From the NCBI GenBank assembly GCA_003990765.1, contig RBNJ01000231.1, positions 1-35,973 on the forward strand: a stretch of 35,973 nt of DNA, in the 5' to 3' direction. Numbering within the stretch: position 1 is the first letter of the stretch; every line of letters begins with the position of its first letter. The notes under the pieces are model-generated. The model did not search any database. It saw nothing but the letters and a program-made list of their open reading frames with translations, and had not been told where the DNA came from. Origin of the DNA: Jimgerdemannia flammicorona. Taxonomy: Eukaryota. Made by a program: the position numbers and the translations under genes. Below are positions 1,230-35,150 of the stretch, piece after piece.

Positions 1230-1231
1230 CT

Positions 1232-7058: not shown

Positions 7059-7097
7059 AGTAGTGTCATTATATCTTACCTTATTAAGAAATCTCAT

Positions 7098-8465: not shown

Positions 8466-8550
8466 TATAAGAGGGTTACTTATTAGAATAACTGTTATAT
8501 AGTTCTGGAAGAGTTTTCTGGAGGTTCTAGATATTCTAGAAGACTGTTTT

Positions 8551-10628
8551 TGTCAGAGGATTACTTGTTAGAGTAACTGTTACATAGTTCTGGAAGAGTT
8601 TTCTAGAAGTTCTGGATATTCTGGAAGACTATTTTCTTAAGGTCAAGATCAATTTTATATGGAGTATATCCTCTATGCATATTGATTTCAAGATTAGGTT
8701 AATGTCTCAACCAAAGTCCTTTTTTGGACTAGTTCTGGATGTTTAGGATTTTCTGTATTTCAGGAAGTTCAAGAAACTAAGACCAGCTTAGTTGGATTGG
8801 CATATTGCTGCAGACAATACCCAATTAGGAAATTTCGTGATGGAGTTAGGAGTGGGACCTAATGGAGAGCAGATTTACTTAAGAGTGGTTTATGGGTTAT
8901 TAAATAGGTTTATTCACTATTCATGATATTGCTATATTAGGAGTAGTTGTGTGAAGGGATATTGTGGAGAAGTGCTCAGGAGTTGTGTTCAGATTGTTCA
9001 AGTCTTTTTGTCTAAGATTCTGAGGTCTGGGAGAGGGGGTATTTATACTAGTGAGGGGCTATCTGGACTATACTAAATATGGATGTAGCACTTAGTACTT
9101 TGCTGAGTCATAATACAGTCACATAGTACAAGTGTGATCTGATATATCAAGAGATCATCTGACTGCTGAGTTAGTTCACAGTTATGTCATACAAGGCTAA
9201 TCTAACTATACTATGACTGCTAAGCTATCTATAGATTTAGATACTGTCTGAATAGTCTTTGATGACATTACTATCAATGACATCATCTTTGATAAAGTAG
9301 TTGTCTAGGAAGAGCTATTTGTAGATTAATTCTCCCTATTCACTGAGGTAGTAATATATTGAGACTTCATCACTATTCTATAGAATAGCATCATCTGTCT
9401 CATATACTGGGTATGGAGTTGGTGGGCGAAGGAGTGGTGCATTGTCTTTGCTTTCATTGAATTTGCTGTCTGCATATCTTCTATAGGTTACAGCACTATG
9501 AGTCATAGGGTTGTAGTAAGCTGGCAGCTGTGGTTCATGTCACTTATACTTAGGTGGTGGAGTGGTTGGTTTGATCTTGAGGGTTGTCTGGAGGTACAGG
9601 TTGTGTTCTCTAGTCTCTTTATTATAGTTGAAGTAGTCAGAAGTAAATGTGGGTTGGTACTTATACCAATGGTCATTATCTCAATAAGTCTCATAGGTGG
9701 TTATGAACTGTTATAAGTTCATTGGCAAAGTTGATGAAGTGATCAGGCTTGGCAAAGATCTTTGGCTTGAGATTATATTGGTGTCAGAGGGGTCATTGTC
9801 TTCTACTTTATCTTCATCAAATTAAATTATATCATAGATATCCTTTATAGCATATCCAACTTAAGGCATTTGTAGGATATGGTCATCAGGGTATGGGAAG
9901 GTTCTGTCTATAGTCTGAACATATTCGAGATACTTGTGGTTGAGTTCTTATATTATGTTATTGATTTGGCCATAGGACAGAGTAGCAACCATTTTGGTAG
10001 TAGTAACTCAGAGGTGGGGAATAAAGGTCCTATACTTGTAGAAGAGTTCTCAATGTTTGTAGGCAATGAGTTTCTGGTGTTGAGACATCTGAGTAATATC
10101 TGTATCATAGTAGTGTTCAACTATATCTTCTAGGAGGTGGTCAATCTGATAGTAGCTTGAGATTTGTCCAATTTGGTAGGCTTCACTAAGCATGTTCAGA
10201 GCATTCCATCAGATTTCCATGAAGTAGAGTGATGCTAAGCTATGGATATTCATGAGGGGCAGAGGGGATGTAGCTCAGTTGATAATAGCATTCCAAATAT
10301 CAGCACAGATGTGGTTATAGATCTTGGTGGTCATGTTTGTATATGTTCAGAAGTTGTAGTTGTTGTTTGTTTTAGTTCTCTATTTTGATGCATCTCAGTA
10401 CTTGGTATATGTATATGTATTTGGTCCTGATTAGTAAGATTCTGTTTATGTAAATCTTGTATTCCGTGACTTTGTGTTGACTCAGCTTTGTGCACTGTGA
10501 CTTCAGTTTGACTCAGCTTCATAATTGAGCAAGTGATTTTCAGATTTGTTCAGCTGTTGTGTGTGATTTCAGTGGCTTGTTCAGAGGGTAATATGTGATT
10601 TCAGTGGCTTAGAGGTTGTGCACTTACA
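8551..10628 (-). repeat. 3' LTR of B2 (2078 bp)
   Basis: TG...CA termini. Minus-strand TATAAAT at 9041-9047 and AATAAA at 8909-8914. Adjacent to the PPT. Confidence 0.92.
9237..10334 (-). pseudogene. LTR(U3)-encoded accessory ORF of B2, ~365 codons, unknown function
   Basis: One frame of 1098 nt from ATG 10334 to TAA 9237. All internal stops revert by C>T or G>A. Translation MTTKIYNHICADIWNAII...EAYQIGQISSYYQIDHLL...IAYKH(R)ELFYKYRTFIPHL...LSYGQINNII, then an acidic/Pro/Tyr-rich tail. Aligns by eye with the C ORF at 25153-25980. Confidence 0.75.
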
Positions 10629-10642: not shown

Positions 10643-11057
10643 AGCTTTTGACATCCTCATTGAGACCTTCTAATTTTGTTCTAGTATTGTTACACTGTTT
10701 AGGAGGTCAAAAGTCTGGTAAAGTCCATTTTTTCAGAAAGTAGCATGCTCATAGTACAGTTGCCTAACATATTGGATTCATACATTAAAGGGTCATGTAT
10801 TCAATGCCATATACCAGAAGTGATTCTGATATCATTCACTACTGGAGAATTTTCTCTAAGGAATCTTCTTAAATGTCTATGCCTTATTTTCCACCAGTGG
10901 TATAGGGAGAATAGACTTGCTTTCAGTTTTGCTATTTTTTTCCAGAGAGTCAGTATTTTTTTTCTTGTCTTATTGAGTTCTTGATTTTGTTCATGATAAT
11001 TATAATATTCAGAGGGGTAATACATAGTATGTACTGATAGGTGTAGAGTATTCAGTT

Positions 11058-14000: not shown

Positions 14001-16194
14001 AGAGTTCTCGAGTTCTCCTTTGGATGAGTGGATGGATATGGCAAAAAGAGAGCATTTCTTGGCCAATTTCTTGAGCTGTAGCTTGTTGATGTGGGTGATC
14101 TTTGGTCTAGGGTCACTAGAGCTGAGTGGGTCTCTTTTGCCTTACAGTTTGAAGTTGTGGCATTCTTTCTTGATGGTTAGAGAATAGTTTACCCAATCGA
14201 TTATGGGGTTCTCTTATTTCAACCATAGGGTTCTAAGAATGATCTCATTATCAGGAAGTGGTACAATCTGGAGAGTAATATATACTCAGTAGTTATCAAT
14301 TCAGAAGGGCAGGTTGTGGACTTCCTTGCTAATAACATGTGAGGTTCCATCAGCTATAGTAACTGCTTGAGTTTTTTATACCAGAGAGGTAAAGACCTTG
14401 AGTCTGTTGGCTGTTTCTTCATTGATGAAGTTGCCTGAGGCACTATTGTCTATCATAATCTTGATAGGTGCTCAATTGACAAAAGTTTGAAGTGTAAGCA
14501 GTTTATCTGATCCAATGGTGGTGATTTCAGTTATAGGAGCTTTCTTCTATTGGTTCTTCTTTGTGCCAGTTCATTAACACAAGAGAAGCAATTATCAATC
14601 ATTCAGGAAGAGTACATTTCAATGCCATGGGGACATCAGCCACTTGGTATAAATCCATCTTCAATTTTCTTATAGAATTGTTCTTCTTTGTTCATGGTAG
14701 GTTAGGCTGGGGCCTTGTTTGATGAGCCAAATCCTTTAGATCCTCAGATGGTGAGCAGTAGTTCAGGGACTTCCTTGACTATCAGGGTTGACTCAATTTT
14801 TTCAAATAGAAACTGCACAATACAGAAACCAGTAGGGATCTTGAAGAGTATTCAACTATGGTTTCAGATGAGGACAATAATTTCATCTGTATAATCTTCA
14901 TCAATGACTCCTCCTTCTGCTGAGAGTCTTTTCAATACTAGGCTGCTGCGACAGCATATTCTTCCAATATGTTCTTTAGGGATTTAGATGCTGATTCCTG
15001 TATAGACTTGCTTAACTTCTCAGTTAGAAACTATAGCTTCTTTAGCTACATATAGGTCATATCTAGCTGCCTTTTGACTTCCTTTGGTTAGGGCCTTGGC
15101 AGTTTGCCTTAACTTGACAAAGTCCAGTATTCTGATAGTCAGATTATTGAGGTGGTGCAGAGTAGTAACAGTTACTTATATGTATTGCTATTCAGGGTTT
15201 TCAGTTAGAGCAGACACTGGCCATATCCTGTCTTTCAGCAATAGAAGCATACTCCACTTCTTCAAAGTTCATTCCTTTCTCCTTCAGTGAGCTTCTTGAA
15301 GGTACTTGGCTGGGTGGGTTCATGATTTCTGGGTATCCATGAGATAGATGTGGAGGGAGCTCAGAATGCTTTATACTTGGGTTCTTCTTTCTTGGTCCAA
15401 GTTTTTTCCTTGTTGTTAAATTGTCTTCAAGGCAGAATTGGTCTAGCTGTTAGGATTTGCTTAACCATAGTCTTGATTCTTGCCAGATACCATTGTTGGT
15501 AGTCGCAACTAACTGGGCAGTCTTGTTCTCAGATTTTTCTAATAAGCCATTCAGACAGTACATCAAATAAATGGTCTGCTCTTGTATCATTTCATGCTTC
15601 ATCATTGGCAATATATCCTAGGCCAATAGTATTCAGGAGTGACTCAAGTTTTGTACAGAAGGTTTCAAATTCTTTCTTACCATATACATCAAATTTGAGA
15701 TTGCAGAGTTTTACTTGAGATTCAGCAATCATAGTTTCACTACAGTATTGAGCAATCATGAGTTGTTTCAGTCCAGGGGCTACAGGATGGGCTCCATATC
15801 CTGGGGTATTGTTTACTGCATTCTAGGCAACTACTGCAGGTCAGGTGTCCCATGTGAGGGGTTTTTCAGGAAGGGTTTATCACTATTCTTCAGTGGGTCC
15901 TCAGAAGAATGTAACAACTTGGTGGACATAGGCTATAGTAGTAGCAAAGAGTTGTTCTAGAGTATGGTCTTGATTGTTAATCAGAATGTAGTCAGCAACT
16001 TGCTCATTGGTCCATTGATTGGCTTTAAAGTTAGTGTCAACTATACTAATGAAGTTTTGAACTTCTTGTGTAGTACTATTGAAGGTAGGTAGGCTCAGAT
16101 TTTTGATAGGTCAGATCTGTTCAGCTAAGGTAGTAATGATTGCTGCCATTATGGCTACCTGGGCTGTAAGATCTAGAATTTGTTGGTTTGCCAT
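11058..16194 (-). pseudogene. B2 gag-pol: gag, knuckle, dUTPase, Cys/His module, protease, RT, RNase H, integrase, chromodomain
   Basis: Minus-strand motifs: MANQQILDLTAQVAI..PIKNLSLPTF, IDNSASGNFI, YIDNILVFS, TTDASDLALG, CDACQ, SIDFIVQLP, VHSVFNIQ, YEVEQIL..GYPIHDTTW. Many stops and a few frameshifts. Confidence 0.92.
14720..15126 (-). pseudogene. dut: dUTPase domain of B2
   Basis: AARYDLY, TGISI, GRICCRSSL, GGVIDEDYT, (R)GSKGFGSS. Confidence 0.88.
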
Positions 16195-17153: not shown

Positions 17154-17626
17154 AGTTATTAGAGGGTTACTTGTTAGGGTAACTATTACATAGTTCTGGA
17201 AGGGTTTTCTGGAAGTTCTGGATATTCTGGAAGACCATTTTCTTAAGGTCAAGATCAATTTCATATGGAGTACATCCTCTATGCTTATTGATTTCAAGAT
17301 TGGATTAACATCTCAATCAAAGTCCTTTTTTGGACTAGTTCTGGATGTTCAGGATTTTCCATATTTCAGGAAGTTTAAGAAACTAAGACTAGCTTAGTTG
17401 GATTGGTGTATCGCTGCAGACAATACCCAATTAGAAAATTTCATAACAGGGTTAGGAGTGGGACCTAATGGAGAGTAGATTTACTTAAGAGTAGTTTGTA
17501 GGTTATTAAATAGGTTTATTCGCTATTTATGATATTACTATACTAGGAGTAGTTATATGAAGGAATATTGTGAGGAAGTGCTCAGGAGTTGTGTTTGGAT
17601 TGTTCAAGTCTTTTTGTCTAAGATTC

Positions 17627-18428
17627 TGTAATAGAATAAACAAACGAGGTGCAATGAACAACGAGCGATCATGTGACCTGGCGAACGATGACATCATCAT
17701 ACGATCGAGTGTGGCATATAAATAATGAATGATGTGAAATGACGCAGAAAACGATATCCAGCTTATCCCCAATAATCGGCGCCGCAGCAACAGTTGCCAC
17801 AGCTGCTGATCATTGCCTAGTAATTGAGGTCCTGATCACAAAAATATTCTTTACCAAAAACCACCTGACAAAGGTTGTGATCACAAACCTCATTATAGTT
17901 ACCAAATTAGTCACTCATACTTAGTCAGAAATCATGGACCAACTTGTATAAATACCCCTCAGTTTCCATCTGAAATAAAGCAGTTTTAGTTCAGTTCTTG
18001 ATATAAGAATCAAGTCCCCCCCCACACACACACATTTCCCTGAGTCTTAGTAATGACATCTAAGTAACTCTAGTGTTTCTGACTAAACTCCAGAAGCCTA
18101 GCTAACTTCTGCCAGAACTGAGACCGGTATATAAATCCCCAAAGACTTAAGTAAACCCATTGAACCTGAATTCCAAGATGAATTCAGTCTGTACACAGTA
18201 AAGAACAAGACTCTCGAAATAGGGCACAAGAGAAAGACCTTTAAAACAGAAGGCAAACTAGAGAAAGACCTTTGAAAGATAAGGTACTGCCGCTACAACT
18301 ACTTATAAGCAAGCACTTCCTCAAACTGAAGGCTTCTTGGTATACATTATATACTAAGTTTCTAAGTAATAGTCCACTTCCCTAATTATCCTAAGGATAA
18401 GAGAGGGATAGAAGTGAGAGTTATTACA
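17627..18428 (+). repeat. 5' LTR of C
   Basis: TGTAATA...TATTACA termini, TATAAATACCCC and AATAAA. Confidence 0.95.
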
Positions 18429-18437
18429 ACTTAGTAG

Positions 18438-19319
18438 CAGCAGTTTACCAGTCAAGAAGGCACCAAAGAACACACTCCTGAAAGTTGGAACAAGACCAAC
18501 CTTGGACAGGAGTAACCCCCAGAACCAACTGTGGATCCTCAAACCAGAGCCAGAGAAGCCCTTGCCATTAGGACCAGGTGGTACCAGGAAACCACAGACA
18601 CAGAGACCTGCCAGCTTGTAATTGACCAGGCCTACAGGGATCTATACCAGGCCTTTAGGATATACCACCCAGGACTTAGGAATATTGTTAGCCACTATAG
18701 GTTCTATGAACTCCTCTGAGGACACATTGGAACCACTAGGACCCCAGAATCTACTGCTGCAGCCACCCAGGATTTTCTAGATTATATCACACCTCCTGCT
18801 GCAAGAGAAGCAGCTGCTGAGTGGATTACCTCTGACAGATATCATCATACCCCAACCAAGACCTCCCTCTACTACAGGCTAGTTGTATACTATGCCTCTG
18901 CCATAACTAGGTACGAGAACGAGCAAGCAGGCCAACCATCCCCTACTACTGAACAAGAAGCAGATCCATCTACTCAGCCAGAGACTGATATTCTCTTTGA
19001 AGGACCTAGTCAGTATGAGGATGCACTATCTCATCAGGGAAGGGAGTCAGACGAAGACTCTACAGATTACCAGTCTGATGATAGCCAATGAGGAACAGCA
19101 GGCCTAGAAATTTACCAAGGAACCACAGGTCAAGAAGATCAGACCCCAGAACCAACCCAGCCATCTATACAGAGGTTTGGTTTACCCTCTCTCACAGGAC
19201 TCTTTGATCTGATATCCGGGAATCAAGTAACTCCAAGTCATACAGTACCACAACCCCACTAAGCAGAACAATCTTCAGGAGAATCTACCCCAACAGGCCC
19301 ACCACCAATAGTCAATACA
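18438..19319 (+). pseudogene. In-frame, AUG-less N-terminal extension upstream of C gag
   Basis: Same frame as the gag ATG at 19320, with only transition-type stops. Contains a block homologous to B2 16195-17140. Confidence 0.6.
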
Positions 19320-22300
19320 ATGGTAGATGCCAACATTACAGCACTGACTACCCAGCTAGCAGTACTAGCAGGGATAGTAGGACAGATTGCTGAACAGAAC
19401 AAACCAATCAAGACCTTGCGAATCCCAACATTCAGTGAAAAAAACAGCAATATTGAAAACTTCATCAATGCAGTTGATACAGGCTACCGAGTAAACCAAT
19501 GGAATGACAATCGAGTACCTATAGGAATGCTCACCAACAACCAGAACAGCACTCTCCAGCAACTGTTTGCTACATCAGCAGCACAAGTGGAAACAGTAGC
19601 CATATTCTTTACTAGAACAGCAGCCAAATTCTGGCAAACTCTGGAACAATACCCAGTAACCTGGGAAGCCTGCCCTCAAGTCAATGGACAAGTACCTGGC
19701 AACAATAGACCAGGTTGGGATGACTATGAAGCAGGCCCAGGACTCAAGGCCTTGCTACTGACCAAATTCCAAAATGCGGCCTACATATAAGAAACTTGGA
19801 ACAAACTATCCCAGATGAAGTTCCACAAGAATGGCGAAGAAGATCTAGAGACCTTTGCCACCAGAATGGATACCTATCTCAAAACTATTGGACTTACCTA
19901 TCAGGAGAACAATTTGACCATTAATGGCACCAGAGCCAACCATCTCTTTGCAGCCCTACCAGACTGGCTCATCCAGAAGATCAAGGAACAAGGTCTTCCC
20001 CAAGGATGTCCCCACTACTCATGGTGCTTTGCCCAAGTACAAAGAAGAGCCCACGAAATTCTTGCTGCACAAGTCCCATGAAATCAAGAACACAAGAAGG
20101 ATAACCAAGATAGGAGAAACCCTACCAGGAGAAATGACCAAAGATATGACCAAAGATATGATCAAAGGAACCAGCAAAACCCCAGAGGACCTAGACCCCC
20201 CACCAAGGATGAAAAGAAGCAGCTCTGTGAAAAGGGATTGTGCTTCATCTGCAAGAAGGCAGGACATATCTCAGTCAAATGCCCTGAAAAGAGAAACAGA
20301 TCAGGCAAGCCCAGTAATCAGAACATTACTGTCATTGGAGAAGGTCCAGGAAAGAAGAACTCCGAGAATGTCATCAAAGTACAGAAGATATGGTACAAGG
20401 CTACCATCCCCACTAAGACCCACCCAACTGATGCTGGATATGACCTCTACAGTAGCCAAGACCTCACCATCCCACCAAGTACCAATGCTACAGTACAAAC
20501 AGGAATTGCAATGCAAGCTCCCAGAGGTACATACATCCACCTTGCTGAGCGAAGTAGCCTAGCCAAAGAGTTCAACATTGGGCTAGGAGGAGGAGTAGTT
20601 GACCAAGGATTTACTGGTGAAATCCATGTCATCTTGCGAAATTTTGGAGACATATCATTTGAAGTCAAAACAGGCCAAAGGATTGCCCAAGCAATCATTG
20701 AAGAAATCTGTCAAGATCTCACCATTGAAGAAGTCCCCGAACTCTCCCAAACAGACCGTGGCAAAAAAGGGTTTGGATCTACCAACAAACCTCCCAGTCA
20801 AAAGGTCACTACCATGAAGGAAGATGATGAAAACTGGTACAAGAGAATTGCAGATGGTTATACACTATGTGGATAATGCCCTCATTCTATTCAAATGTAC
20901 TGCATGGAACATGTTAGTGAATGCTATGCATGCCTCTCCAAAGTTTTCAAAATTCAATCTGAGAAACGCCAAGCTCAACAGACTGAGGAACCCAATCAAG
21001 ACAACCCTCCTTGTGAAGGATGGGGAGAGACTGACTTCGAGGAGACTGACAGCAATTGGGACAACAATGAGGATGAAGAGCTCAATACCATCAAGAAGGA
21101 GGACAGTTGCATCAAGTTCACAGGCCAAGTCCACAGACAAAATGTCAATGTCTTGCTTGATAGTAGTACTACCGGAAACTACATCAGCACCAAGACTGCC
21201 AAGAGGATCGGAGCCCAAAGCAGACCCACTGCTGAGAAAAGAAATGTTACCTTTGGTGATGGAAAGACTGCACCATTGACCAAGATCTATGAAGACCTTT
21301 TGCTCAAGATTGGCAAATATCAAGAGAAATTGAACTTCAGCATTGTAGATCTCCCAGGACAAGATATTATCTTAGGAAAAGCCTGGTTGACCCAGCACAA
21401 CCCAGACATCAACTGGAGAACCAATGAGGTTAACCTGACCCACAAAGGCAGAAAGATCACTCTGACACCCCAGGAAGGTACCAACTACCAAGGAATCGAA
21501 ATCATCTCTGCCATTCAAATGAAGAGACTCTCTCAAAAAAAGGGAAACACCTACTTCATCTGTACAGTACAAGAAGTTACTGAAGCTACAAGCAGCACAA
21601 TTCCAACAGAAGCTCAAGAACTGTTTGAAGAATTCCAAGATGTATTCCAAGATCCTCAAGGACTCCCACCCAAGCACCAAATCCAACATGGAATTGATCT
21701 TATTCCAGGATCTGAACCTCCATATAAGAGTATCTACCAACTGGCCCAACCTGAGCTCAAGACCCTCAAGGATGAGTTGACCAAACTACTGGCCCAAGGA
21801 TACATTGAACCCAGCCACTCTCCATTTGGAGCCCCCATTCTATTTGTCAAGAAGAAGGATGGCTCTCTGCGAATGTGTATTAACTACAGAGCCCTCAACA
21901 AGATCACCATCAAGAACCGATATGCCTTGCCCAGAATTGATGAGTTGCTACACCAAATCTTCAAGGCCAAGACCTTTTCTCTACTGGATTTGTGAAATAG
22001 CTACCACCAGATTCTCATTGATGAGAAAGCCATTGAGAAGACAGCTTTCCGAACACAGTTTGGATACTACCAGTTCCGAGTCATGCCTTTTGGATTGACC
22101 AATGCACCAGCAACATTCCAGTATCTGATGAATGACATCTTTGGACCACTCCTCAATATCTGTGTCCTTGTGTATATTGACGATATACTAATCTACAGTG
22201 AGACAGTAGAGCTACACTACACCCACCTTAAACAAGTACTGACCCTCCTGCAAGAACACTAGCTCTATGCTAAGATGAGCAAGTGTAAGTTCTATCAAGA

Positions 22301-24504
22301 CCAGATCGAGTACTTAGGACACATCATCTCTGCTGAAGGTATCAATGTGGACCCCCGAAAAGTATCAGCCCTTAAGGATATCCCTATCCCTACTACCCTT
22401 AAGCTACTACAGCACTTTCTGGGTATTACTGGTTATTACTGAAGGTTTATCCAAGGATATTCTGCTATTGCAGCCCCATTGACCAGCTTGGCCCATAAAG
22501 GAGTGAACATCAAAGCTGAATAGACCCCCAAATGCACTCTGGCTATGGACCATCTCAAGCGACTCCTTACTGAGGCCCCAGTACTAATTGCACCTAACTC
22601 TACCAGACCATTCACTCTGACCACAGATGCCTCTGACATTGCTATTGGAGCAGTGCTCAGCCAAGAAGACTGCCCAGTGGCCTACCTTTCCCAGAAACTC
22701 AAGCCAGCTGAGACCCGATATACCACCCATGAGAAGGAACTCCTGGCTATTGTCACTGCACTCCAGAAATGGTGCCACTTCCTCCTAGGACAGCCATTTG
22801 TGGCCTACACTGATCACCATGCACTGTGGTATATTCACATACAGCCTATGCTGACCCACAGACAAGCCTGCTGGATGGAAATCATTGCCAACTTTGATAT
22901 GAAAATCAAGTACATATATCCCAGGCAAAACCAACTGTGTGGCTGATGGTTTCTCCAGGTATATGGAAGACGAACTTGTCTTCCTAGTCGAAGTAATTGG
23001 AGACCTTACCCAAATGATCAAGGATGGCTACCAGCAAGACAGCCCTCTGATGAATTTCCTTCAATTCTGCCAAGACCCAGAGGCTGAGGTTCCAGAACCC
23101 ATGAGGCAAATGACCAAGAGATTCACCTACCATGATGGACTTATCTACAGAGACCATGACAGAGTAGTTGTACCCAACAATGATACTCTGCAACTCAAGA
23201 TCATGCAGGAACTCCATGATACTTCTGCAGCAGGACACTTTGGTTTCGAAAAGACCTACAACCTCCTCTCAAGAGAGTTCTACTGGCCAAAGATGACCAA
23301 GGATATCAAAGATTTTGTGGCCTCATGTGAGATATGCTAAAGGTTCAAAAGTAGTAACAAGCTACCAGCAGGACTTCTGCAACCCTTGCCTATCTCGAGT
23401 TACAACTGGGACCAGATTGCGATGGACTTCATTGTCCAACTCCCCAAGACCAAGGCAGGATGGGATGCCATCATGGTATTCATGGACCGCCTAAGTAAAC
23501 AAGCCCATTTTGCACCCACCAAGACCACTGCTACAGCACCAGAGATTGTCAAGATTTTTCTCAACCAAGTATTCAGGCTACATGGCATACCTAGCACCAT
23601 TGTATCTGACCGAGATGTCAAGTTCACAAGCAATTTCTGGAAGGCATTTTTCTCCCTCCATGGAACCAAGCTGAAGTTCTCTACTGCCTACCACCCTCAG
23701 ACTGATGGTCAAACTGAGCGAACCAACAGGACTCTCAAACAGATGCTTAGTATCTTCTGCTGTTACAAGCAAAATGATTGGGACAAGTACCTAGCCCATA
23801 CTGAGTTTGTCTACAATAACAGTCAGCAAACCTCTACAAAGAAGACTCCATTCTTCCTGAACCATGGTCAACACCCAAGGACCCTAAGTACTACTGCAAA
23901 ATCAGCAGTTCCAGCAGCCCAAGATTTGGCCAAGACCATTTCTGACCTTATGCAAATGATAAGAGATGCTCTCATAGAAGTACAAGACTATCAGACCAAG
24001 TACGCGAACTTGAAGCGAAGAGAAGCCTCCTACAATATTGGTGACATTGTCATGCTTAGAACAGACCACCTCCACCCAGACACTCTGGCACAACAACCAG
24101 CCAAGAAACTCCATACTAGAAGAATTGGACTATACAAGATCATGGAAAAAATCAGTGAAGTCAACTACAAGTTGCAACTTCCCCACAATATCCAAGTACA
24201 CCCAGTATTCCATATCAGCCAATTGGTGGACTACCATGAGAACCTATTCCCTGAGCATACAGTTCCACCACCACCCCCAATTAGGATCAATGATTATGAG
24301 GAATTCGAAATTGAGGAAGTACTTGACCACAAGGTCTGCAAATATCCTAAAACAGTCAAGTGCTTTTTCCTGATCAAATGGAAGGGTTACCCCACCCATG
24401 ATGCCACCTGGGAAAAAGAAGAAGCCCTGAAGAATACATGTGAAGCCCTCCAGGACTACATGGAAACACTCACCCCCCAGCAAAGGAAGGAACTACAGCT
24501 CTAA
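19320..24504 (+). pseudogene. C single-frame gag-pol: gag, CCHC knuckle, dUTPase, Cys/His module, protease, RT, RNase H, integrase, chromodomain
   Basis: [98 protein letters not shown] pieces 19320, 19815, 20238, 20895 and 22545 share a frame; there is one frameshift near 22915. Confidence 0.95.
20364..20783 (+). CDS. dut: dUTPase domain of C (uninterrupted)
   Basis: DAGYDLY, TGIA, ERSSLA, GGVVDQGFTGEI, GQRIAQ, RGKKGFGST: all five trimeric dUTPase motifs. Confidence 0.93.
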
Positions 24505-24822
24505 GTATAGGAGCATACAGCAAGCAGAAGGGTACCACATATTCTTATCTGGAAATATATAATACCAAACATTGTGAGGAAAAAAGAACACTATGGATAA
24601 TCAATAAGAAGATACCCGAGCAAAAAGAACAATCTAGTACAGTACAGCAAAATGCATTTGAACAACTCCATTTCATACCATCTGTGTCATCTCCACTAGA
24701 TGATGATGGACACTTCATGTGAAACTTAGGAAAGCCGACAATGTCGAAACCAGTCTAAGTCCATCCACGTGACAGATATTGTTACTAGGAATTGCCTCGG
24801 ATTACAAGAAAAGTCTATTTCT

Positions 24823-24898
24823 GAGAGATTCAAACTCCCAGCCGTGATAATGGGAGCCCTTGCCCTAGACAAGGATGGCCAGTCCTCGCAAATGCGCC
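24823..24898 (+). ncRNA. Candidate conserved structured cis-element in the C post-pol region
   Basis: GAGAGATTCAAACTCCC...ATAATGGGAGCCCTTGCCCTAGACAAGGATGGCCAGTCCTCGCAAATGCGCC; homologues in A1, A2 and B1. Confidence 0.55.
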
Positions 24899-25080
24899 AA
24901 CCAGACAAAAAAAAAGTGGACCAAGACCTGTTAACCCTGTGTAACCACAACTATGAGTGATAAGATCTTCGAAATCAGAATTTTCTCATGTGACCAGCAC
25001 ATGCTCTGCTTATAGCACAGGTTATGTATTTTTGCCAGAAAGTGTGACCAAAGGAAGGTCACATCAGATGGGTGAATAAG

Positions 25081-25091
25081 TATAAATACCC
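25081..25091 (+). promoter_or_regulatory. Putative internal TATA box for the C accessory gene
   Basis: TATAAATACCC matches the LTR TATA context of C and B and lies 72 bp upstream of ATG 25153. Confidence 0.55.
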
Positions 25092-25152
25092 AAGGCAAGA
25101 ATACCCCGCAACTCTCATCCCCCTCTCCTCACAAAGAAAAGACAAGACAAGA

Positions 25153-25980
25153 ATGCCTGCCACCCGCCACCAAACTGCCTACAGTAGCCAACCCCTCCCA
25201 AGCCAGGTTGACCACCTCTTTGGACACATCCGGGTTGCTATCCAAGGAAGGAACCACCGCTCAGAGGCCCTTAACCTCTCTAGCCCAGACCTAGGACAGT
25301 ATGTTCTTGACTGCCATGAACTTATCGAAAGGGCCTACCTTGCTACCAGCTGCCTAGAAATCTGGCACAAATATGAAATCGGTCACCAGCTTCTCCAACA
25401 TACAAATGACCTACCCACAGACCAGGTCTCTGACTGGACTCACCTAGATAGACATGAGCAAAGACTTGCCAAGAAGGTCCATCAAATCATGTACCATGCA
25501 TCCTTCGCGATCCCCAACCTCAACTACATACAACTGAAGGACTTCCAGAACCTCTCCTTCCCTGAGGTCGATGCCCTAGAAGTCAAGGTCGCCCAAGAAG
25601 CCAACTCCTGGATTGCTCTCAAGTCTACTGATATCGAGCCCCGCTGGAGCCCCCTCCTGAATGATAACCCTGACCAATGGCTCCAAGGCCTCTCTGACCT
25701 CTTTGAAGGACCGCCTATCTGAATAGATATTCCCAGACATGAAGACCAAGAACCCTACTTGGATGGCCCCAACCACATCAGATGGAGAACCCCTACACCA
25801 GCACTTATCCCAATGTAAGAACTATTTGCAGACCTCATTGACTTCTCCATCCTGAACAGCAAGCCACCAGTAACCACCCCCCCTGCCCCTGAAGAAGATG
25901 GTAACAACCCTGAGGAGGATTCCCCACCCTTCTCTCCCCTGGTTCTCAATTTCTCAATCAATGAGGATGTTGATTTCTAA
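25153..25980 (+). pseudogene. Accessory ORF of C (275 codons, two transition-type stops), unknown function, not env-like
   Basis: MPATRHQTAY...ELIERAY...YEIGHQLL...LAKKVHQIMYHASFAIPNL...LSFPEVDAL. The frame continues past TGA 25720 and TAA 25816 to NEDVDF*, which abuts the PPT. No visible signal peptide or TM segment. Confidence 0.75.
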
Positions 25981-25991
25981 GGAGGGAAGGA

Positions 25992-26793
25992 TGTAATAGA
26001 ATGAACGAATGAGGTGCGATGAATGACGAGCGATCATATGACCCGGTGAATGATGACGTCATCATATGATCGAGTGCGGTATATGAATAATGAATAATGC
26101 GAAACGACGCGGAAAATGATATCCAGCTTATCCCCAATAATTGGCGCCACAGCAACAGTTGCCATAGCTGCTGATCATTGCCTAGTAATTGAGGTCCTGA
26201 TCACAAAGATATTCTTTACCAAAAACCACCTGACAAAGGTCACAATCACAAACCTCATTATAGTTACCAAATTAGTCACTCATACTTAGTCAGAAATCGC
26301 GAACCAACTTGTATAAATACCCCCCAGTCTCTATCCGAAATAAAGCAGTTTTAGTTCAGTCCTTGATACAAGAATCAAGTCCTCCCCCATACACACACAT
26401 TTCCCTGAGTCTTAGTAATGACATCTAAGTGACTCTAGTGTTTCTGACTAAACTCCAGAAGCCTAGCTAACTTCTGCCAGAACTGAGACCAGTATATAAA
26501 TCCCCAAAGACTTAAGTAAACCCATTGAACCTGAATTCCAAGGCGAATTCAGTCTGTGCACAGTAAAGAACAAGACCCTTGAAATAGGGCACAAGAGAAA
26601 GACCTTTGAAACAGAAGGCAAACCAGAGAAAGACCTTTGAAAGATAAGGCACTGCTACTACAACTACTTATAAGCAAGCACTTCCTCAAACTAAAGGCTT
26701 CTTAGTACACATTGTATACTAAGTCCCTAAGTAATAGTCCACTTCCCTAATTATCCTAAGGATAAGAGAGGAATAGAAGTGAGAGTTATTACA
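25992..26793 (+). repeat. 3' LTR of C
   Basis: Copy of 17627-18428, differing essentially by transitions. TGACGTCA at 26054-26061. Confidence 0.95.
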
Positions 26794-27014
26794 GATTCTG
26801 AGGTCTGGGGGAGGGGGTATTTATACTAGTAAGGGGCTATCTGGACTATGCTGAATATAGATGTAGCACTTAGTGCTTTGCTGAGTCAGAATGCAGTCAT
26901 ATAGTACAAGTGTGATCTGATATGTCAAGAGATTGTCTGACTGTTGAGTCAGTTCACAGTCATGTCATATAAGGCTAATCTAACTATACTATGACTGCTA
27001 AGCTATCTATAGAT

Positions 27015-28111
27015 TTAGACACTATCTGGGTAGTCTTCAATGATATCACCATTGATGACATCATCTCTGATAAAGTAGTTATCTAGGAAGAGTTGTTTAC
27101 AGATTAATTCTCTCTATTCACTAAGGTAGTAATACATTGGGACTTCATCACTGTCCTACAGGATAGCATCATCTGTCTCATATACTGGGTATAGAGTTAG
27201 TGGGTGAAGGAGTAGTACATTATCTTCACTTTCATTGGATTCACTATCTGCATACCTTCTATAGATTAAAGTACTATGAGTCACAGAGTTGTAGTAAGTT
27301 GGCAACTGTAGTTCATATTGCTCATACTCAGGTGGTGGAGTGGTTGGTTTGATCTCGAGAGTTGTCTGGAGATACAGGTTGTATTCTCCAGTCTCTTCAT
27401 TGTAGTTGAAGTAGTCAGGGGTGAGTGCGAGTTAGTACTCATACCAATGGTCATTATCCCAATAAGTCTCATAGGTGGTTATAAACTATTACAAGTTCAT
27501 TGGCAAGATTGGTGGAGTGATCAGACTTGGCAGGGATCTTTGGCTTAAGGTATGTTGGTATCAGAGGGGTCATTGTCTTCTACTTCATCTTCATCAAATC
27601 GAATTATATCATAGACATCCTTCATGGCATATCCAACTTGAGGCATTTGCAGGATATGGTTGTCAGAGTGTAAGAAGGTTCTGTCTGTGGTCTGAATGTA
27701 TTTGAGGTACTTATGGTTGAGTTCTTGTATCATATTATTGATTTGGCCATAAGATAAGATAGCAACCATTTCAGTGATAGTAACTCAGAGGCAGGGAATA
27801 AAGATGCTATACTTGTAGAAGAGTTCTCAATATTTGTAAGCAATGAGTTTCTGGTGTTGAGACATCTGGGTAATATCTGTGTCATAGTAATGTTCAACCA
27901 TGTCTTCTAGGAGGTGGCCAATCTGGTAGTAGCTTGAGATTTGTCTGATTTGGTGGGCTTCACTAAGCATGTTCAGAGTATTCCATCAGGCTTCTACAAA
28001 GTAGAGTGATGCTAAGCTATGGATATTCATGAGGGGCAGAGGGGGTATGGCTTAGTTGATAATGGTATTCCAAATATCAGCATAGATGTGATTGTAGATC
28101 TCAGTGGTTAT
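27015..28111 (-). pseudogene. Second copy of the B2 LTR accessory ORF, in the 5' LTR
   Basis: ATG>ATA at 28111 and a 1-bp deletion near 27550. Retains YYQIGHLL (~27908-27931). TATATATACC lies ~79 bp upstream (28181-28190). Confidence 0.72.
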
Positions 28112-29186
28112 GTTTATATATGTTCAGAAGTTGTAGTTGTTATTTGTTTTGGTTCTCTATTTCAATGTATCTTGGTACTTGGTATATATAGATTTGGTCC
28201 TGATTGGTAAGATTCTGTTTATGTAAATCTTATATTCTGTGACTTTATATTAACTCAGCTTTGTGCACTGTGACTTTGGTTTGACTCAGCTTCATGATTG
28301 AGCAGGTGATTTTCAGATTTGTTCAGCTATTATATGTGATTTCAGTAGCTTGTTCAGAGGGTGACATATGATTTCAGTGGCTTAGAGGTAGTGCACTTAT
28401 AGTTTTCTTAAGGTCAAGATCAATTTCATATGGAGTATGTCCTCTATGCTTATTGATTTCAAGATCAGGTTAATATCTCAACTAAAGTCCTTTCTTGGAC
28501 TAGTTCTAGATGTCCAGAATTTTAAAGTTCAAGAAACTAAGACCAGCTTAGTTGAATCAGCATATTGCTGCAGACAATACCCAATTAGGAAATTTCATAA
28601 TAGGGTTAGGAGTGGGACCTAACAGGGAGCAGATTTACTTAAGAGTGATTTGTGGATTATTAAATAGATTTATTTGCTATTTATGATATTGCTATACTAG
28701 AAGTAGTTGTATGAGAGAATATTGTAGAGAAATATTCAGAAGTTGTGTTCAGATTGTTCAAGTCTGAGATTCTGAGGTCTGGAGAGGGGGTATTTATACT
28801 AGTGAGGGACTATCTGGACTATACTGAATATGGATATAGTACTTAGTATCTTGCTGAGTCAGAATACAGTTATATAGTACAAGTGTGATCTGATATATCA
28901 AGAGATTATCTGACCACTGAGTCAGTTCACAGTTACATCATATAAGGCTAATCTAACTATACTATAACTGCTAAGCTATTTATAGATTTAGATACTGTCT
29001 AGTTAGTCTTGATGATATCACTATTGATGACATCATCTCTGGCAAAGTCTGAGCAGTTTTCTGACTTCTGATATTATCAGTTTCAAAGGTATCATTATCT
29101 CTATCTCTTGCAAAATTAAGGCTGTCCTCAGTGGTGGTAGTTGTACAAGAATAACAGGTCTTGGTTCTTTTTTTTTTTGAGCTACT

Positions 29187-29262
29187 GGTACATTTGTAAG
29201 GACTAGCCATCCTTGTCTAGAGTGAGGGCTCTCAATATCATGGCTGGGGGTTCAAACCTCTT
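29187..29262 (-). ncRNA. Candidate conserved structured cis-element within the B1 LTR U3
   Basis: Minus strand AGAGGTTTGAACCCCCAGCCATGATATTGAGAGCCCTCACTCTAGACAAGGATGGCTAGTCCTTACAAATGTACC; part of a ~300-bp similarity to C 24645-24940. Confidence 0.55.
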
Positions 29263-29808
29263 GGAAATGATATTTTCTATAATCTGAGGTAATTTCTAGT
29301 AGTAATATCTATCATGTGGATGGGCTTGAGATTGGTTTTGACAATGTTGGCTTTCTTGAGTTTAGATGAAGCATCTGTCATTCTCCATTAGAGGTGATAT
29401 AGATAGAGTGAATAGGGTTATTCAAATGTATTTTACTTCTACTAAGTAATGAGGTCTTTGTATAGTTGTAGTATATCTTGGTCTTGAGTTGATAAGTATA
29501 ATTCATAAACCTTTAATAGATGAGATAGGGTTCTTCTTGTCTCAGTTTGAGTTTGGTACTTCAGTTTCCTTTTGTAATAGTATAGTATACCAAAACTAGT
29601 TGTAGAGATATAGGGTCAGTCTTATGATTATAGTACTTCTTCTGATATTCTTATATCTTGGCAGTAGGTTCTTGTGTTTGCTGGTATATTTTGTGTAACC
29701 AGGTGATCTCTTCAGTAACTTGTTTTGTAGTCTCACATATAGTTTCCAAATTAGTTCTGAGGATAACATGTGATTTTAGTGACTTGGAGATTGTGTACTT
29801 ATATCTGA

Positions 29809-32800
29809 AGAAAAGGACCACCTAAAGAAATCTGAAGCCTGTTTCTTCTGTTGCTAAACAGGATATATTGCAACCAAATGTCCTAAGAAGACTAGTGAAC
29901 TCTCAAAACCAGTTACTGTGTTATCCAAAGATACATCTGTCAACCCCACTACCAGTCAATTCAAGCTCAAGATCAAGAAGCTTCACCTGAAGACCCAGGT
30001 CTCTCAATATCAAATAGAAGGAGTCATTGATCTTGACTAGTGCTCCTAACAAGTCAATTTAATCTGGATTGGATTCAGATTGATTCAGATTGAATCTCAT
30101 CTAGATAGATTCAAACCAATCATTGTTTTGATTTCCAAATTAGACAATTAAATATTTATATTAATAACTTATTGAATAATCATCCAAATTTGATGATCTT
30201 ATTTGAAAGCCCTTAATAAGGCCTATCTAATGATATTAAGAACATTGAAATCAGATCATGTATTGCTGAGTTATGAAGAAACCCATCTAAATCACCAATT
30301 TTGAAAAATTTTTGATTTGCTAATTTTGGAAATTTCATCAAATAGAATGTTTTCTTTAATATTTTGGTAATGCATAATCCAATTTTAATGTACTTGGTAT
30401 CATTAGAAAGGCCTTATTAAGGGCTTTCAAATGACATCAAGATCATCAAATTTAAATTATTATTCATCAAGTTATTGATGTAAACATTTAATTGTCTAAT
30501 TTGGAAATCAAAACAATAGTTGATTTGAATCTATTCAGATGGGATTCAAATCCCATCTGAGTTGATCTGAATGAAATTTGAATCCCATCTGAATTCCATC
30601 TGGATTGACTCATTCAGAGCACTAGTCTTGACCTACACTCAGTCAAATAAGTTACCATTCCAGCCAAGGGCCAAACTCTGGTGCCTACTAGAATTGCAGT
30701 TCAATGTCCTGAAGAACATTATACTAGAATTGTACTACAATCAGGACTCAGTGTCAAACATCATTTAGATGTATATAGGTGCTAGTATTATTGACCCAGA
30801 CTTTTGAGGACAAGTTTAAGTTCTGCTTATCAACTAGAAGGATTAAGACTACACAGTCAAAGAAGGAGACTAAGTCATGCAAATGATCCTGGAAAAAGCC
30901 AGTCAACTCAAAATTACAGAAGTCCAAGAACTCTCTGAAACCAAATGAGACCAAAAAGGTTTTGGTAGTACCAATCAAGCAGCAAGTCTTAGTGAAAATT
31001 GAGCTCAAGCTATACTTATTTTCAAAGGCCTAGTCAAAGGAAAAGATGTTCAAGTACTTATAGACAGCAGAGCTACAGGGAACTTCATCAATCAGAACCT
31101 CATTAAAAGCTTCAAGATCCTTATCAAGCCCATACTCAAGAACAATAGTATAGTCACTGCAGATGATACTCTATACCCCATTTAGTCAATTACTACCAAA
31201 CTATCCATCAAGATCCAGAAATATTGAGAATGAGTAGACTTTGAGGTTATACTACTAAGAGATCATAATCTGATTCTAGGAAAACTCTGACTTATGAAAT
31301 ACAACCTAGATATTGATTGGTATAAGAATGAAGTCACCTTACTTCAAGATGGAGCTGATATCACTATTAAGACAGACAAGACTATGAACAAGACCCAGAT
31401 TGTAACACTGTCAGCTATACAGTATAAGAGAGTACTTAAGAAGATAATGCATGCCTTTATTATAATAGTCTGCTCCAAGAAACAAGACAAGAGACTATCA
31501 GTTAATAAAAGCATCAAGTTACTACTAGAAGAATTCAAGGATGTCTTTCTAGATAAACTACCTAGCCTACTGCCTATATGAGAAGTTGATCATAAAATCA
31601 AACTGACCCCAAAAGCTATACCACCCAAGAAATATATATATCACATATCACTACTTGAAATTGAAGTAGTCAAGAAGAAACTAGAAGAACTACTTATATG
31701 AGGAGCTATTTAGCTAAGCAAATCTCCTTATGGCTTACCAGTCCTATTTGTCAAGAAGAAGGATGGTACCCTGTGAATGTATATAGACTATTGTATACTC
31801 AACAAACTCACTGTCAAGAACTGCTATCTGCTACTCTTGATTGATCAAATCTTTGATACTCTTAAGAATACTAAGTACTTCACCAAGTTAGACCTTATGT
31901 CAGGATACCACCAGATTTGAATCAAGCTAGAAGATATTTCCAAAACTGTGTTTATGATCTTCTTTGGACTTTATGAATTCTTGGTCTTAGTATTTGATCT
32001 CACCAATACACCTGCCATATTCTAGACCCTGATGAATAAGATATTCAAAGACCAACTATTTATTTTTCTATTAATATATCTTGATGACATTCTGATCTTT
32101 AGCACAACTAAAGAAGAATACCTCAAATACATTTGAATAGTTCTAGAGATCCTGTGAAAACATAAGCTTTATACTAAGCTCAAGAAGTGTGAATTCTTTA
32201 AGAAATAAGTCAAATATCTTGGCCACATTGTCTCTGTATAAGAAATTCAAGTAGACTCATATAAAATAAAAGTAATTGAAGAATGGTCCATTCTATCAAA
32301 CCTTACAGAACTCTGATCCTTCCTTAGTCTAGCTGGCTACTACTACTATTTTGTTAAAAACTTCTCTGGCATTACCAAGCTACTAACTAATCTCATAAGA
32401 AAGGCCCTATACTTAGACTACTATATACTCTACACTTGAGATCTCTTCTGTCAATAAGCTTTTTAAGAACTCAAGAACTGTCTGACCTATGCTCCAGTTC
32501 TGCATAATGCAGATTAAGGCCTAAAATTCATAGTTACTACTAATGTATCAAATTTTGCCATTAGAGCAGTCCTGTTATAAGATGATAGCAAAGAACATCA
32601 TTCTATTGTTTTTGAGTCCTGCAAGTTGGCCTCAGCTAAACAAAAGCTAGCCATTTATGAGAAGAAACTACTGGTAATAATATATATACTAGACTACTGA
32701 CAATGCTATCTAGAAGGTGTTGAGTTTGATGTCATTACTGACTATTAATTCCTCAAGTACATTAACACCTAATCTACTCTATTATATCTACAAGTCAAGT

Positions 32801-34380
32801 AGAGTCTCAAGCTTCAAACCTTCAACCTGATGATCATCTATAAGCCTGGCAAGACACTTGTAGTACCAGATGCCTTATCAAGATATCCAGACCTCACCAC
32901 AATCATACAGGTTACCTTGGCATTAGAATTCCTAGACCAAATCAGATAAGCTTACAAAGAAGATATAGTTGCCACTAAAGTTTTCTCAAATGAGCTCAAG
33001 GATATATATACTGTTGAGAACAACCTGATCTATCATCAAGACCAAGTCTATCTACCTGAAAACATAAACCTACACTATAAGATTTTACAAGAACACTATG
33101 ACTCCTCTCTTGCCAGTTACCTGAGAATTAAGAAAACTATCAAGAACACTCAATGCCACTACTATTGACCAAGCATGGTCAAGGAAATTAAGAACTATGT
33201 TACCAGCTGTGATCTATGCCAGTGCAACAAGTCTATTAATCAAGTACTAGCTGGTTTGCTATAACCACTGCTAATTTCTACCAAGAAATTTGAGCAAGTT
33301 ACTATGGACTTTGTAACTCAACTACTATGAACTCAATCTAGTGCTGATACTATTATTATATTCATTGATCATCTGATCAAGACTATGGTTACTGAACCAA
33401 CTACTACCAATGCTACTACACTCAAGATTGCAAGAATCTTCTTCAAGTCTATCTTCTATCACTATGGCCTACTATGAGTAATTGTCAGTGATTATAACCT
33501 CAAGTTTATCAGTCACTTTTAGCAAACTCTCTTCAAGACCCTGGAAACCCAACTGGCTATATCTACTATCTTTTATCTACAAACTGATGGACAAACTGAG
33601 TACATAAACAGAACTCTAAAACAAATGCTTAGAAACTATGTTTCTTATAAGTAAGATGATTGGGACCACTATCTGACTTATGTAGAGTTTGTATACAACA
33701 ATGTCATCCAATCATCTACTGGTCTTTCTTCTTTCCAATTACTCTATGGTCAAGATTCTGAGACCTCTGTAAGTTTATTCTCTTTTAAGAAAAACAGTTA
33801 AATACAAGTTCCTACTACCAAGAGCTTTACAGACAAAATGAATGAACTACTCAAGATTGCTACTGCGAATCTTCAGAAGGCTCAACAGCATCAAGCCAAG
33901 TATACTGACAAGAAATACTATGATGTCACTTATATTATTGGAGATCAAGTCCTACTGTCTACTGAGAACCTTAAGATACAATCTCAAGTCAACTGCTCTT
34001 CAAACAAGTTCCAACCTAAGTATATTGGATCTTTTGAGATCACTGAACAAGTCTCTGCATCCTCCTACTGTCTCAAGCTATCTGAAACCATGAGAGTACA
34101 CCCAGTCTTTCATGTATCACACCTTAAGACCTAGAATCAGTCACTGTCCTATCCTGGTCAAATTCCTAAGTCATCTACTCCTGTGATTATTGAAGACCAT
34201 ATTGAGTATGAAGCTGAGAAAATCCTTAACAAATGAATCCACTACCACCATTCTGAATATCTAGTCAAGTAGATGGACTATCCTGAATATGATACTATCT
34301 GAGAACTACTGATCAATCTCAAAAACTCTCAAGATCTAGTCTAAGACTTTAAGGAAAAATACATTGCCCAATCCCTGTAG
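29809..34380 (+). pseudogene. A1 gag C-terminus, dUTPase (split by the MITE), PR, RT, RH, IN, chromodomain
   Basis: Colinear with A2 2141-6293, with a dense transition-derived stop load. Confidence 0.92.
30038..30624. mobile_element. Non-autonomous hAT-type DNA transposon / foldback MITE (587 bp)
   Basis: 8-bp TSD ATCTTGAC (30030-30037) / GTCTTGAC (30625-30632). TIRs TAGTGCTC..AA..AGTCAAT, subterminal GATTCAGA/ATCCCATCTG repeats and long internal inverted arms. No coding capacity. Confidence 0.85.
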
Positions 34381-34507
34381 TGACTTCCTTAGATTGTTGA
34401 TGACCTATAGTAATGACCAATACCTTATATATCAGAAGTTTACTTTGGGACCCCAGAACTAGCAGAACATTTAATAAACAAAAAGTCTACCAAAATGAAG
34501 CTACTAG

Positions 34508-34592
34508 CTGGGTTCAAATCCCTCCTAGTTAGTTAGTCTGATAATAGGCTCTCTGCTCTATATGAGAATAGTCAATCTCTACTAATGCACTA
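34508..34592 (+). ncRNA. Candidate conserved structured cis-element in the A1 3' UTR
   Basis: Counterpart of 6421-6505 with complementary mutations, which allows a consensus to be reconstructed. Confidence 0.45.
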
Positions 34593-34681
34593 ATACAAGT
34601 TTGAGAAATTTTGGTTAAGTATATCTAGTCTTGTATTATCTAAGAACTTAATGAGGATATTAGTTCTTAAGGAGGGAGGGA

Positions 34682-35145
34682 TGTAACAATTTCACAGTCA
34701 TATTTAGTCATAGTATATTTTTGCATCTTTTAGTTAGTCTTTTCTTATCATTTCTTAAATATTCTACTATATTCTGCTACCTTCTACTTGCTTAAAAATC
34801 TTCTCTCAGCACCCAGACACTACTAGAATACTCTTGTCTTTCCTTGGTACCAAGCATCTTATCTTAGCTAGTCATAGAACCTTTTGGAATATTGTAGAAC
34901 CATATTAGTCATCTTTGCTAAGAACCTATTTCTTGGTATTTCTCTTTCTTTCCAAGATCCTTCCAGATCTTTCTTTCAGATTCTATATAAATATTCTTAT
35001 TCTCTATCTGAATAAAGCTCAGAATATTTTCTCTCAGAAATCTTTTGAAAATACTTGAACCTTTAAGTATCTCTTTGAGCTACTTTAGACTAACTAGAAC
35101 TCCCAGATTTGGCCACTTTCTCTTAAAGAAACTAGAATCATTATA
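34682..35145 (+). repeat. 3' LTR of A1
   Basis: Follows the PPT AAGGAGGGAGGGA (34669-34681) and starts TGTAACAATTTCAC. Confidence 0.92.
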
Positions 35146-35150
35146 ATACT

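Follow-up and report, generated by a model that had tools for sequence, protein, structure and literature searches.

The window analysed here (the whole 35,973-nt stretch formed by positions 1 to 35,973 of contig RBNJ01000231.1) contains two sister Ty3/gypsy retrotransposons, element C and element B2, that very probably share an accessory gene by descent: in C, the gene lies between pol and the polypurine tract, in B2 within the long terminal repeats (LTRs). The best reading of the data is that of a separately transcribed accessory protein, of which we infer the transcription and the regulatory function from the sequence. Taken as a whole, the best explanation, according to which C and B2 inherited one accessory gene that would have its own promoter, a short mRNA and a regulatory role, has about an even chance of being right. 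The original prediction for this DNA had proposed a gene that is not env-like (in agreement with the lack of a membrane segment and of any match to a Pfam env family), is common to two sister gypsy families (as found by hhalign, shuffle controls and reciprocal hidden Markov model (HMM) matches) and follows a TATA box of the LTR-promoter context (located 72-80 nt upstream of the frame); these proposals were borne out.

In element C, the accessory frame (25153..25980, plus strand) extends over 275 codons from the ATG at 25153 to the TAA at 25978-25980 and lies downstream of the pol stop (24504); it is followed by the polypurine tract aaggagggaagga (25979..25991, plus strand), which overlaps its stop codon. 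The frame corresponds to the one anticipated (275 codons between pol and the polypurine tract, 72 nt after a TATA box), with the qualification that it is broken here by two in-frame stops, TGA at 25720-25722 and TAA at 25816-25818, which leave 189 codons uninterrupted.

Relatives of the C protein are present in other samples. A word-indexed protein search (37 candidates) returned P0005, which is 64% identical over the full 189 residues and has R at the position of the window's TGA; the searches of this kind gave one match each among 37, 215 and 10 candidates, their scope being set such that "longer" and "shorter" forms, e.g. those fused to pol, lie outside it. A profile search of 1.84 billion representatives yielded seven proteins at E ≤ 1e-3, five of which (P0005-P0009) reached E ≤ 1e-10 and are true relatives; P0010 and P0011, two long repeat proteins whose matches fell into 12 and 5 stretches, were rejected as spurious. 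Motifs are conserved among the relatives over the full length, including the part behind the window's two stops (WHEYEIGH, AKKxHQ, NPxLQDNPDQWLQ, FEGPPI, DLIxF, PxVLNF). An intact relative of 291 codons was found on L001, a JGI metagenome contig and the one such case among 155 pattern-matching stretches; its frame ends with TAAGGAGGGAGGA followed by TGTAATAAG, matching C in the polypurine tract and in the start of the LTR. The ratio of non-synonymous to synonymous substitution rates (dN/dS) between the window copy and L001 was 0.22 (NG86) for all 261 aligned codons and 0.15-0.18 for codons 1-189, with dS near saturation in this comparison; the differences fall on third, first and second codon positions in 118, 75 and 50 cases, respectively. 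Short contigs of other samples tile the transitions from the pol end to the spacer, from the spacer to the frame and from the frame to the LTR, and relatives occur in soil-metagenome runs; among the IMG/VR viral contigs, no relative of the C or B2 accessory family was detected. One contig of run X9, which is only guessed to be RNA, starts at 25130 and spans the frame to 26009; it was not used as evidence for a transcript start. Together, the relatives, the intact L001 frame, the dN/dS ratio and the tiling contigs show that the C accessory frame is a genuine protein-coding gene, that it is under purifying selection and that it belongs regularly to its element family.

These findings also bear on the alternative that the frame is non-functional, or a piece of a captured host gene in decay, and would be kept for its cis-acting overlap near the polypurine tract. 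Such a frame would fit with every window copy being broken and with a few codons before the polypurine tract being kept in B2 too, outside any long frame; however, dN/dS is about 0.2 rather than near 1, frames are intact in other samples (L001, P0005-P0009, P0012 and P0014), and no cellular homologue was found among the 1.84 billion representatives, Pfam and the PDB sequences. This alternative is largely refuted and very improbable.

The accessory protein is neither Env nor Gag. Nothing above threshold was obtained from Pfam for the nine proteins scanned, and for eight of the nine no family was listed at E ≤ 1 (none of the env families matched); the assignment of P0004 to DNA_pol_A_exo1 (E 0.053, 13.8 bits versus a cut-off of 23.6) was sub-threshold and was rejected, as was the idea of a gag-like second open reading frame (ORF), since hhalign of A9 against the gag-dUTPase region of C (19200-20600) gave a probability of 0.2% at E 0.31. 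The PDB sequences gave no match at E ≤ 10. The acidic tails and the missing transmembrane segment that had been noted by eye were confirmed by calculation: the tails have an isoelectric point of about 4.05 and a net charge of -12 to -36, with hydrophobic residues among the acidic ones, and the highest 19-residue Kyte-Doolittle mean of six proteins was 1.05 or less, so that no membrane segment is indicated. AlphaFold2 modelled a helical core (approximately residues 57-160, predicted local distance difference test (pLDDT) 66-91) and a disordered tail at a mean pLDDT of 53.1 with 11 sequences (47.6 with 7 sequences). The models are consistent with a helical N-terminal domain of about 170-190 residues followed by a strongly acidic tail dotted with hydrophobic residues, which is probably disordered. 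Structural comparison of this poor model (mean pLDDT 53.1) by Foldseek gave no match in the PDB at E ≤ 0.001 (best E 0.48), the wide VIA-align search reached a best Z of 4.2, its weak rows to helix-turn-helix proteins (Z of about 3) being at noise level, and the ESM Atlas returned only unnamed clusters at 0.89-0.92, where recognition is below the reliable level (a Mucoromycota cluster at 0.89 is a lead only). For the integrase, the Atlas pointed to Basidiomycota, likewise as no more than a lead.

In element B2, the frame is located inside the LTRs. The copy of the 3' LTR (B2a, 9237..10334, minus strand, read from 10334 to 9237) comprises 366 codons with 13 internal stops; that of the 5' LTR (B2b, 27018..28111, minus strand) has its start mutated to ATA, contains stops and is frameshifted near 27540-27563. 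Two intact proteins from elsewhere support the reconstruction: P0014 (128 residues) shares the Met start of the B2 frame and is 75-76% identical, and P0012 (247 residues) corresponds to the C-terminal part at 58% identity. Ten of the 13 internal stops sit at R (4, all TGA), Q (4, all TAA) or W (2) of these intact proteins, as expected for C>T and G>A changes; the proposal of a frame of about 365 codons in both LTRs, interrupted by transition-derived stops, is in line with these figures. Within the LTR, about 290 nt precede the frame, and about 190 nt separate its end from the TATAAATACC that belongs to the LTR itself (9038..9047, minus strand); the frame lies upstream of the LTR TATA box and is therefore placed in the presumed U3, with two copies per element.

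No relic polypurine tract was seen 3' of the B2 frame. Directly before its own polypurine tract, B2 has a stretch AATGAGGATGT...TAAGnAGGG (10629-10665, minus strand) that compares with 25958-25991 of C, where the same stretch forms the last residues of the accessory protein (NEDV..stop) and the polypurine tract; it represents the remains of a C-type arrangement from the ancestor of B2 or, alternatively, an extended region that acts in cis in plus-strand priming.

That the accessory proteins of C and B2 are homologous by descent is highly probable from sequence comparison, the homology probably covering the approximately 110 N-terminal residues. The alignment that had been drawn by eye was reproduced by BLASTP at E 6e-4 and 5e-5 and, for the intact relatives P0013 and P0014, by an ungapped match of 48 residues at E 0.001; P0007 and P0014 matched in a neighbouring segment (E 0.007). 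Profile-profile alignment by hhalign improved with the depth of the alignments, from E 8.7e-4 and a probability of 23% with thin ones to E 1.9e-4 and 47% over 106 columns with better ones, the significant profile similarity that the original prediction had named as its test. The real score of 33.9 stands against 12.3 +/- 2.4 for column shuffles (maximum 23.7, none of 300 reaching the real score) and 12.0 for the reversed-alignment control; when only outside, unmutated sequences were used, the score was 30.5 versus 12.9 +/- 2.8 (maximum 24.8, none of 200 shuffles reaching it). In a search of the window in all six frames, the HMM of each family had the other family as its best non-self match (E 0.009-0.025), and MAFFT aligned both families colinearly from near the N-terminus.

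The competing interpretation is that the two frames are unrelated extra ORFs and that the likeness of their N-terminal parts is due to chance or to the composition of helical proteins. It draws on the low identity (18-26%), on the hhalign probability of just 47% (23% with the thinner alignments), on HMMER E values of 0.01-0.07 (the profile of outside C-family members alone found the B2 copies at E 0.04-0.07) and on the comparison of P0009, the most divergent member of the C family, with P0014, which was not significant (E 3.1); moreover, column shuffles break helical periodicity and may inflate the significance given above. It is opposed by both series of shuffles (none of 300 and none of 200 reaching the real score) and by the reversed control (12.0 versus 33.9), by the rise of the signal with added sequences, by the colinear match from near both N-termini and by the reciprocal best matches over all six frames of 36 kb. 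In addition, the two frames hold the same place in sister elements of the same domain order, and the partial B-type LTR B3 holds the upstream segment of C at 73% identity. Unrelatedness is clearly improbable.

The segment in question is a conserved non-coding stretch upstream of the C gene (24601..24957, plus strand) with 73-75% identity to 29127-29487 (minus strand) in B3; in the latter, the segment (about 360 nt, 73% identical to the post-pol spacer of C) stands where the frame would follow. Its core at approximately 24856-24899 (GCCCTnGCCCTAnAnnAGGATGGCCA...CAAATGC) is shared with the distant L001 as well (L001 1-130), and it may represent an upstream regulatory element. The segment lies 180-550 nt upstream of the TATA box of the accessory gene. 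The B3 LTR itself (28403-29806) lacks the frame except for the last few codons (DDVINSDIIK-like) and shows that gain, loss or exchange of the accessory module takes place between families.

The putative core promoter of the C gene, TATAAATACC at 25081..25090 (plus strand), is located 72 nt before the ATG and is followed by a C/T-rich tract. The 12-mer GTATAAATACCC of this internal site recurs in both C LTRs (TATA at 17947 and 26312). The motif TATAWATACC occurs seven times in the window versus 0.18 expected, a number that none of 100 shuffles reached; two of them lie in the C LTRs, three in B-type LTRs and one each at the internal sites of C and B2b, the B2 copies and the LTR pairs being non-independent instances of the motif. 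Upstream of the B2b frame, TATATATACC is found at 28181-28190 (minus strand), upstream of the B2a frame the degenerate TATA-like atatacatatacc (10404..10416, minus strand), and L001 has TATAAAAG in otherwise unalignable DNA. The start codon follows its TATA box at a distance of 72 nt (C), 79 nt (B2b) or 80 nt (L001). Beyond the box, no homology was detected between the flanks of internal and LTR TATA boxes, and the DNA upstream of the ATG cannot be aligned between C and L001 save for one 45-nt stretch. Two further motifs accompany the boxes: every 150-nt stretch preceding an internal box contains two to three copies of GTCAC/GTGAC versus 0.2 per 150 nt window-wide, and all six exact matches to GCTGAGTCA lie in B-type LTRs (including 9102, 9165, 10478 and 10509). 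The latter sites come in pairs, upstream of the frame's TATA-like stretch (10478 and 10509) and, inverted, upstream of the LTR TATA box; the 9-mer contains TGAGTCA, which we take to be a basic leucine zipper site of the AP-1/Gcn4 type.

According to these motifs, the gene would be transcribed from its own promoter into a short mRNA ending in the downstream LTR, and each B2 LTR would be a complete unit, a part of the explanation for which the balance tips just towards probable. The gene occupies the 3' end of the element, with its stop codon overlapping the polypurine tract in C and L001; in B2, the gene follows the polypurine tract, and the whole unit is therefore copied into both LTRs, within the presumed U3. 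In the mechanism proposed, the TATA-box promoter of the accessory gene would be of the same type as the LTR promoter, its short mRNA would extend to the poly(A) site provided by the LTR downstream, and every B2 LTR, including a solo LTR, would constitute a complete expression unit. The following points weigh against an own promoter: the B2a copy has just a degenerate TATA-like stretch, the TATA context of L001 differs, and the instances of the motif in the B2 copies and LTR pairs are not independent as stated above.

Alternatively, the shared gene could be expressed in the manner of retroviral env or accessory genes, through splicing of an RNA initiated in the 5' LTR to a sub-genomic message, the TATA-like box being incidental or a leftover of an LTR promoter. 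The C-rich pyrimidine tract and AG just before the ATG in C and L001, which might be a 3' splice site or an initiator region, agree with such an RNA, and an internal TATA 12-mer identical to that of the LTR is what an LTR-derived copy would leave. However, C, L001 and B2b have all retained a TATA-like box 72-80 nt from the ATG despite unalignable flanks, and no pyrimidine tract precedes the B2 ATG. Furthermore, the B2 frame in the presumed U3 of the 5' LTR is upstream of the LTR TATA box (9047 in the 3' LTR copy), and an LTR-started RNA would therefore carry just the 3' copy. A spliced origin of the message is considered unlikely.

The last and weakest step of the proposed mechanism concerns the function of the product, which would act in trans to regulate the expression or silencing of the element that encodes it, the acidic tail serving as an activation or recruitment module. 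That the product regulates element transcription or silencing through this tail is doubtful; the proposal derives from the architecture of the element and from the acidic, hydrophobic tail. It is weakened by the poor structure model (mean pLDDT 53), which matched no fold.

A non-transcriptional role is possible, if rather unlikely: the protein could be an accessory factor of the particle or of nuclear import, or an antagonist of host genome defence (RNA silencing, methylation, repeat-induced mutation). No DNA-binding domain was recognised by Pfam, and the acidic tails with DLIxF and P-x-V/I-LNF fit host-binding short linear motifs as well. The window copies are, moreover, heavily transition-mutated and these elements are therefore attacked by the host. 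Transitions account for all 58 differences between the C LTRs (17627-18428 versus 25992-26793), for 187 of the 192 in the aligned parts of the B2 LTRs (9015-10626 versus 26793-28399) and for 269 of 276 in a pair of a third family (2362-4319 versus 30625-32586). The sites are mostly CpA and CpG, with CpA/TpG favoured in B2 and the third family and CpG about equal to CpA in C. Such a pattern is a signature of repeat-induced or methylation-driven mutation as known from fungi, and the repeats of the window look like products of repeat-induced or methylation-linked mutation. No point against a non-transcriptional role emerged; it differs from the explanation of a self-regulating element in the last, inferred step only.

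Among known systems, foamy viruses (Spumaretrovirus) are the closest in layout: in addition to the LTR promoter, an internal promoter drives their tas and bet genes. Likewise, the accessory gene stands at the 3' end and is preceded by a putative TATA-type promoter of its own besides the LTR promoter, its mRNA would share its 3' end with the genomic RNA, and its product has an acidic C-terminal part. In contrast to foamy viruses, there is no likeness in sequence or fold (no Pfam match at E ≤ 1), the host is probably fungal, the element lacks env, and the internal promoter is a candidate, recognised by its TATA box 72-80 nt ahead of the ATG and by upstream motifs in common; neither Pfam nor the PDB sequences gave a match that would place the protein in the Tas/Bel family. 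It is decidedly doubtful that these are "complex" retrotransposons in which a transactivator or anti-silencing factor would be made from an internal promoter with the LTR core and upstream motifs; a feedback circuit like that of foamy viruses would then have arisen in a probably fungal Ty3/gypsy lineage, the B2 unit would have moved into the LTR, and solo LTRs would supply the factor in trans.

The second comparison is with mouse mammary tumour virus (MMTV), whose sag gene is an ORF in the U3 of the LTR encoding a type II membrane glycoprotein. The B2 frame likewise lies wholly inside the LTR, upstream of the LTR TATA box and twice per element (the U3 being presumed), and a dUTPase just before the protease is a further feature that C and B2 share with betaretroviruses. 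Unlike sag, the accessory gene encodes a protein without a hydrophobic segment and without sequence likeness (no Pfam match), and the same gene is found outside the LTR in the sister family C.

To our knowledge, extra ORFs in LTR retrotransposons have often been noted and almost never explained. The parts available of the respective papers describe ORF3s common to bdelloid rotifer families (PMC5408684), ORF0 of rice Retrosat2 upstream of gag-pol (PMC3485330), brtn of Boty/BcGypsy1 in antisense orientation (PMC8365987, citing Zhao et al. 2011) and, in the scheme of some fungal chromoviruses, an "add. ORF" whose function is unknown (PMC2864245, compared by the legend of Fig. 3 only). As far as these parts of the sources go, the accessory gene resembles such ORFs in being an extra gene beside gag-pol that is common to distinct families and evolves faster than pol; it differs from brtn (antisense) and ORF0 (5' of gag-pol) by its sense orientation 3' of pol, and from the other additional ORFs by its own TATA box and by lying outside the LTR in one sister family and inside it in the other. 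The search for a match to an already described retrotransposon ORF family, which would have removed the novelty claimed at the outset, found none: the literature covered, from which most subscription journals are absent, describes neither the accessory protein family nor an ORF in sense orientation inside the LTR of a fungal gypsy element.

In the present case, a conserved and selected gene family without known relatives, common to two element families by descent, is preceded by a candidate promoter. The gene content of C and B2 is more virus-like than usual for gypsy elements, and the position of the gene before the polypurine tract in C versus inside the LTR in B2 constitutes a natural experiment on shifts of the LTR boundary. 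Should the gene be expressed, a solo LTR of the B2 type would count as a protein-coding unit, which changes the annotation of "dead" remnants in repeat-rich genomes; if its product regulates transcription or silencing, a retrovirus-like regulatory circuit would exist outside animals.

The elements in which the gene resides are part of a set of nested LTR retrotransposons, a layout obtained from self-comparison and junction reading of the window. Element C (17627-26793, plus strand) is a complete dUTPase-bearing chromovirus (Ty3/gypsy) inserted into the 5' LTR of B2, a minus-strand element. It is flanked by the 5-bp target duplication GATTC (17622..17626 on the 5' side and 26794-26798, plus strand) and has 802-bp LTRs with TG..CA ends: the 5' LTR (17627..18428, plus strand; LTR TATA 17947-17956) is followed by the primer-binding site (PBS)-like acTTAGTAGCAGCAG, the 3' LTR (25992..26793, plus strand; LTR TATA 26312-26321) starts with TGTAATAG at 25992 after the polypurine tract, and these LTRs, the duplication, the PBS-like TTAGTAGCAGCAG and the polypurine tract are the end features of a Ty3/gypsy element. 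The region from gag to the chromodomain (19200..24504, plus strand) contains a frame change near 22300-22500 and a few in-frame stops. The B2 LTRs measure about 2.1 kb, the 3' LTR extending from 10628 down to about 8466 (8466..10628, minus strand, low end approximate) and the 5' LTR consisting of a larger part at 26794..28401 (minus strand) and a remainder at 17156-17626, with element C between them; polypurine tract (aagaaggggagag), LTR start (TGTAAGTG at 10628) and a PBS-like sequence are present as well. B3 (28403..29806, minus strand), the third and partial B-type LTR, adjoins B2 and combines a B-like start and a B-like 3' part with the C-like upstream segment, without a frame.

C and B2 are sister dUTPase-bearing chromoviruses: both have the domain order gag (CCHC), dUTPase, protease, reverse transcriptase, RNase H, integrase and chromodomain, and their pol DNA is about 65% identical. 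In Pfam scans, which were run with stop codons read as X, both gave RVT_1, RT_RNaseH, Integrase_H2C2, rve, SH3_Tf2-1 and Chromo in this order, with dUTPase before the protease (element C: dUTPase E 9.1e-32, RVT_1 3.9e-37, Integrase_H2C2 3.4e-23, Chromo 4.9e-11). The dUTPase is placed between the gag zinc knuckle and the protease (C: 20400-20780, E 9.1e-32; B2: approximately 14700-15100, minus strand, E 3.7e-24). In betaretroviruses, it is found at the same position, just before the protease. According to PMC2864245, dUTPase occurs at other positions in fungal gypsy elements.

No Rfam family was detected anywhere in the window. The third repeat family is represented by copies at 288-7059 and 29805-35146, which are about 85-86% identical and have no significant match to either accessory-gene profile. 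The B2 LTR has an 85-bp tandem unit at its end, with two copies in the 3' LTR (8466-8635) and one in the 5' LTR (17157-17241), and a 179-bp tandem duplication is located at 4144-4501.

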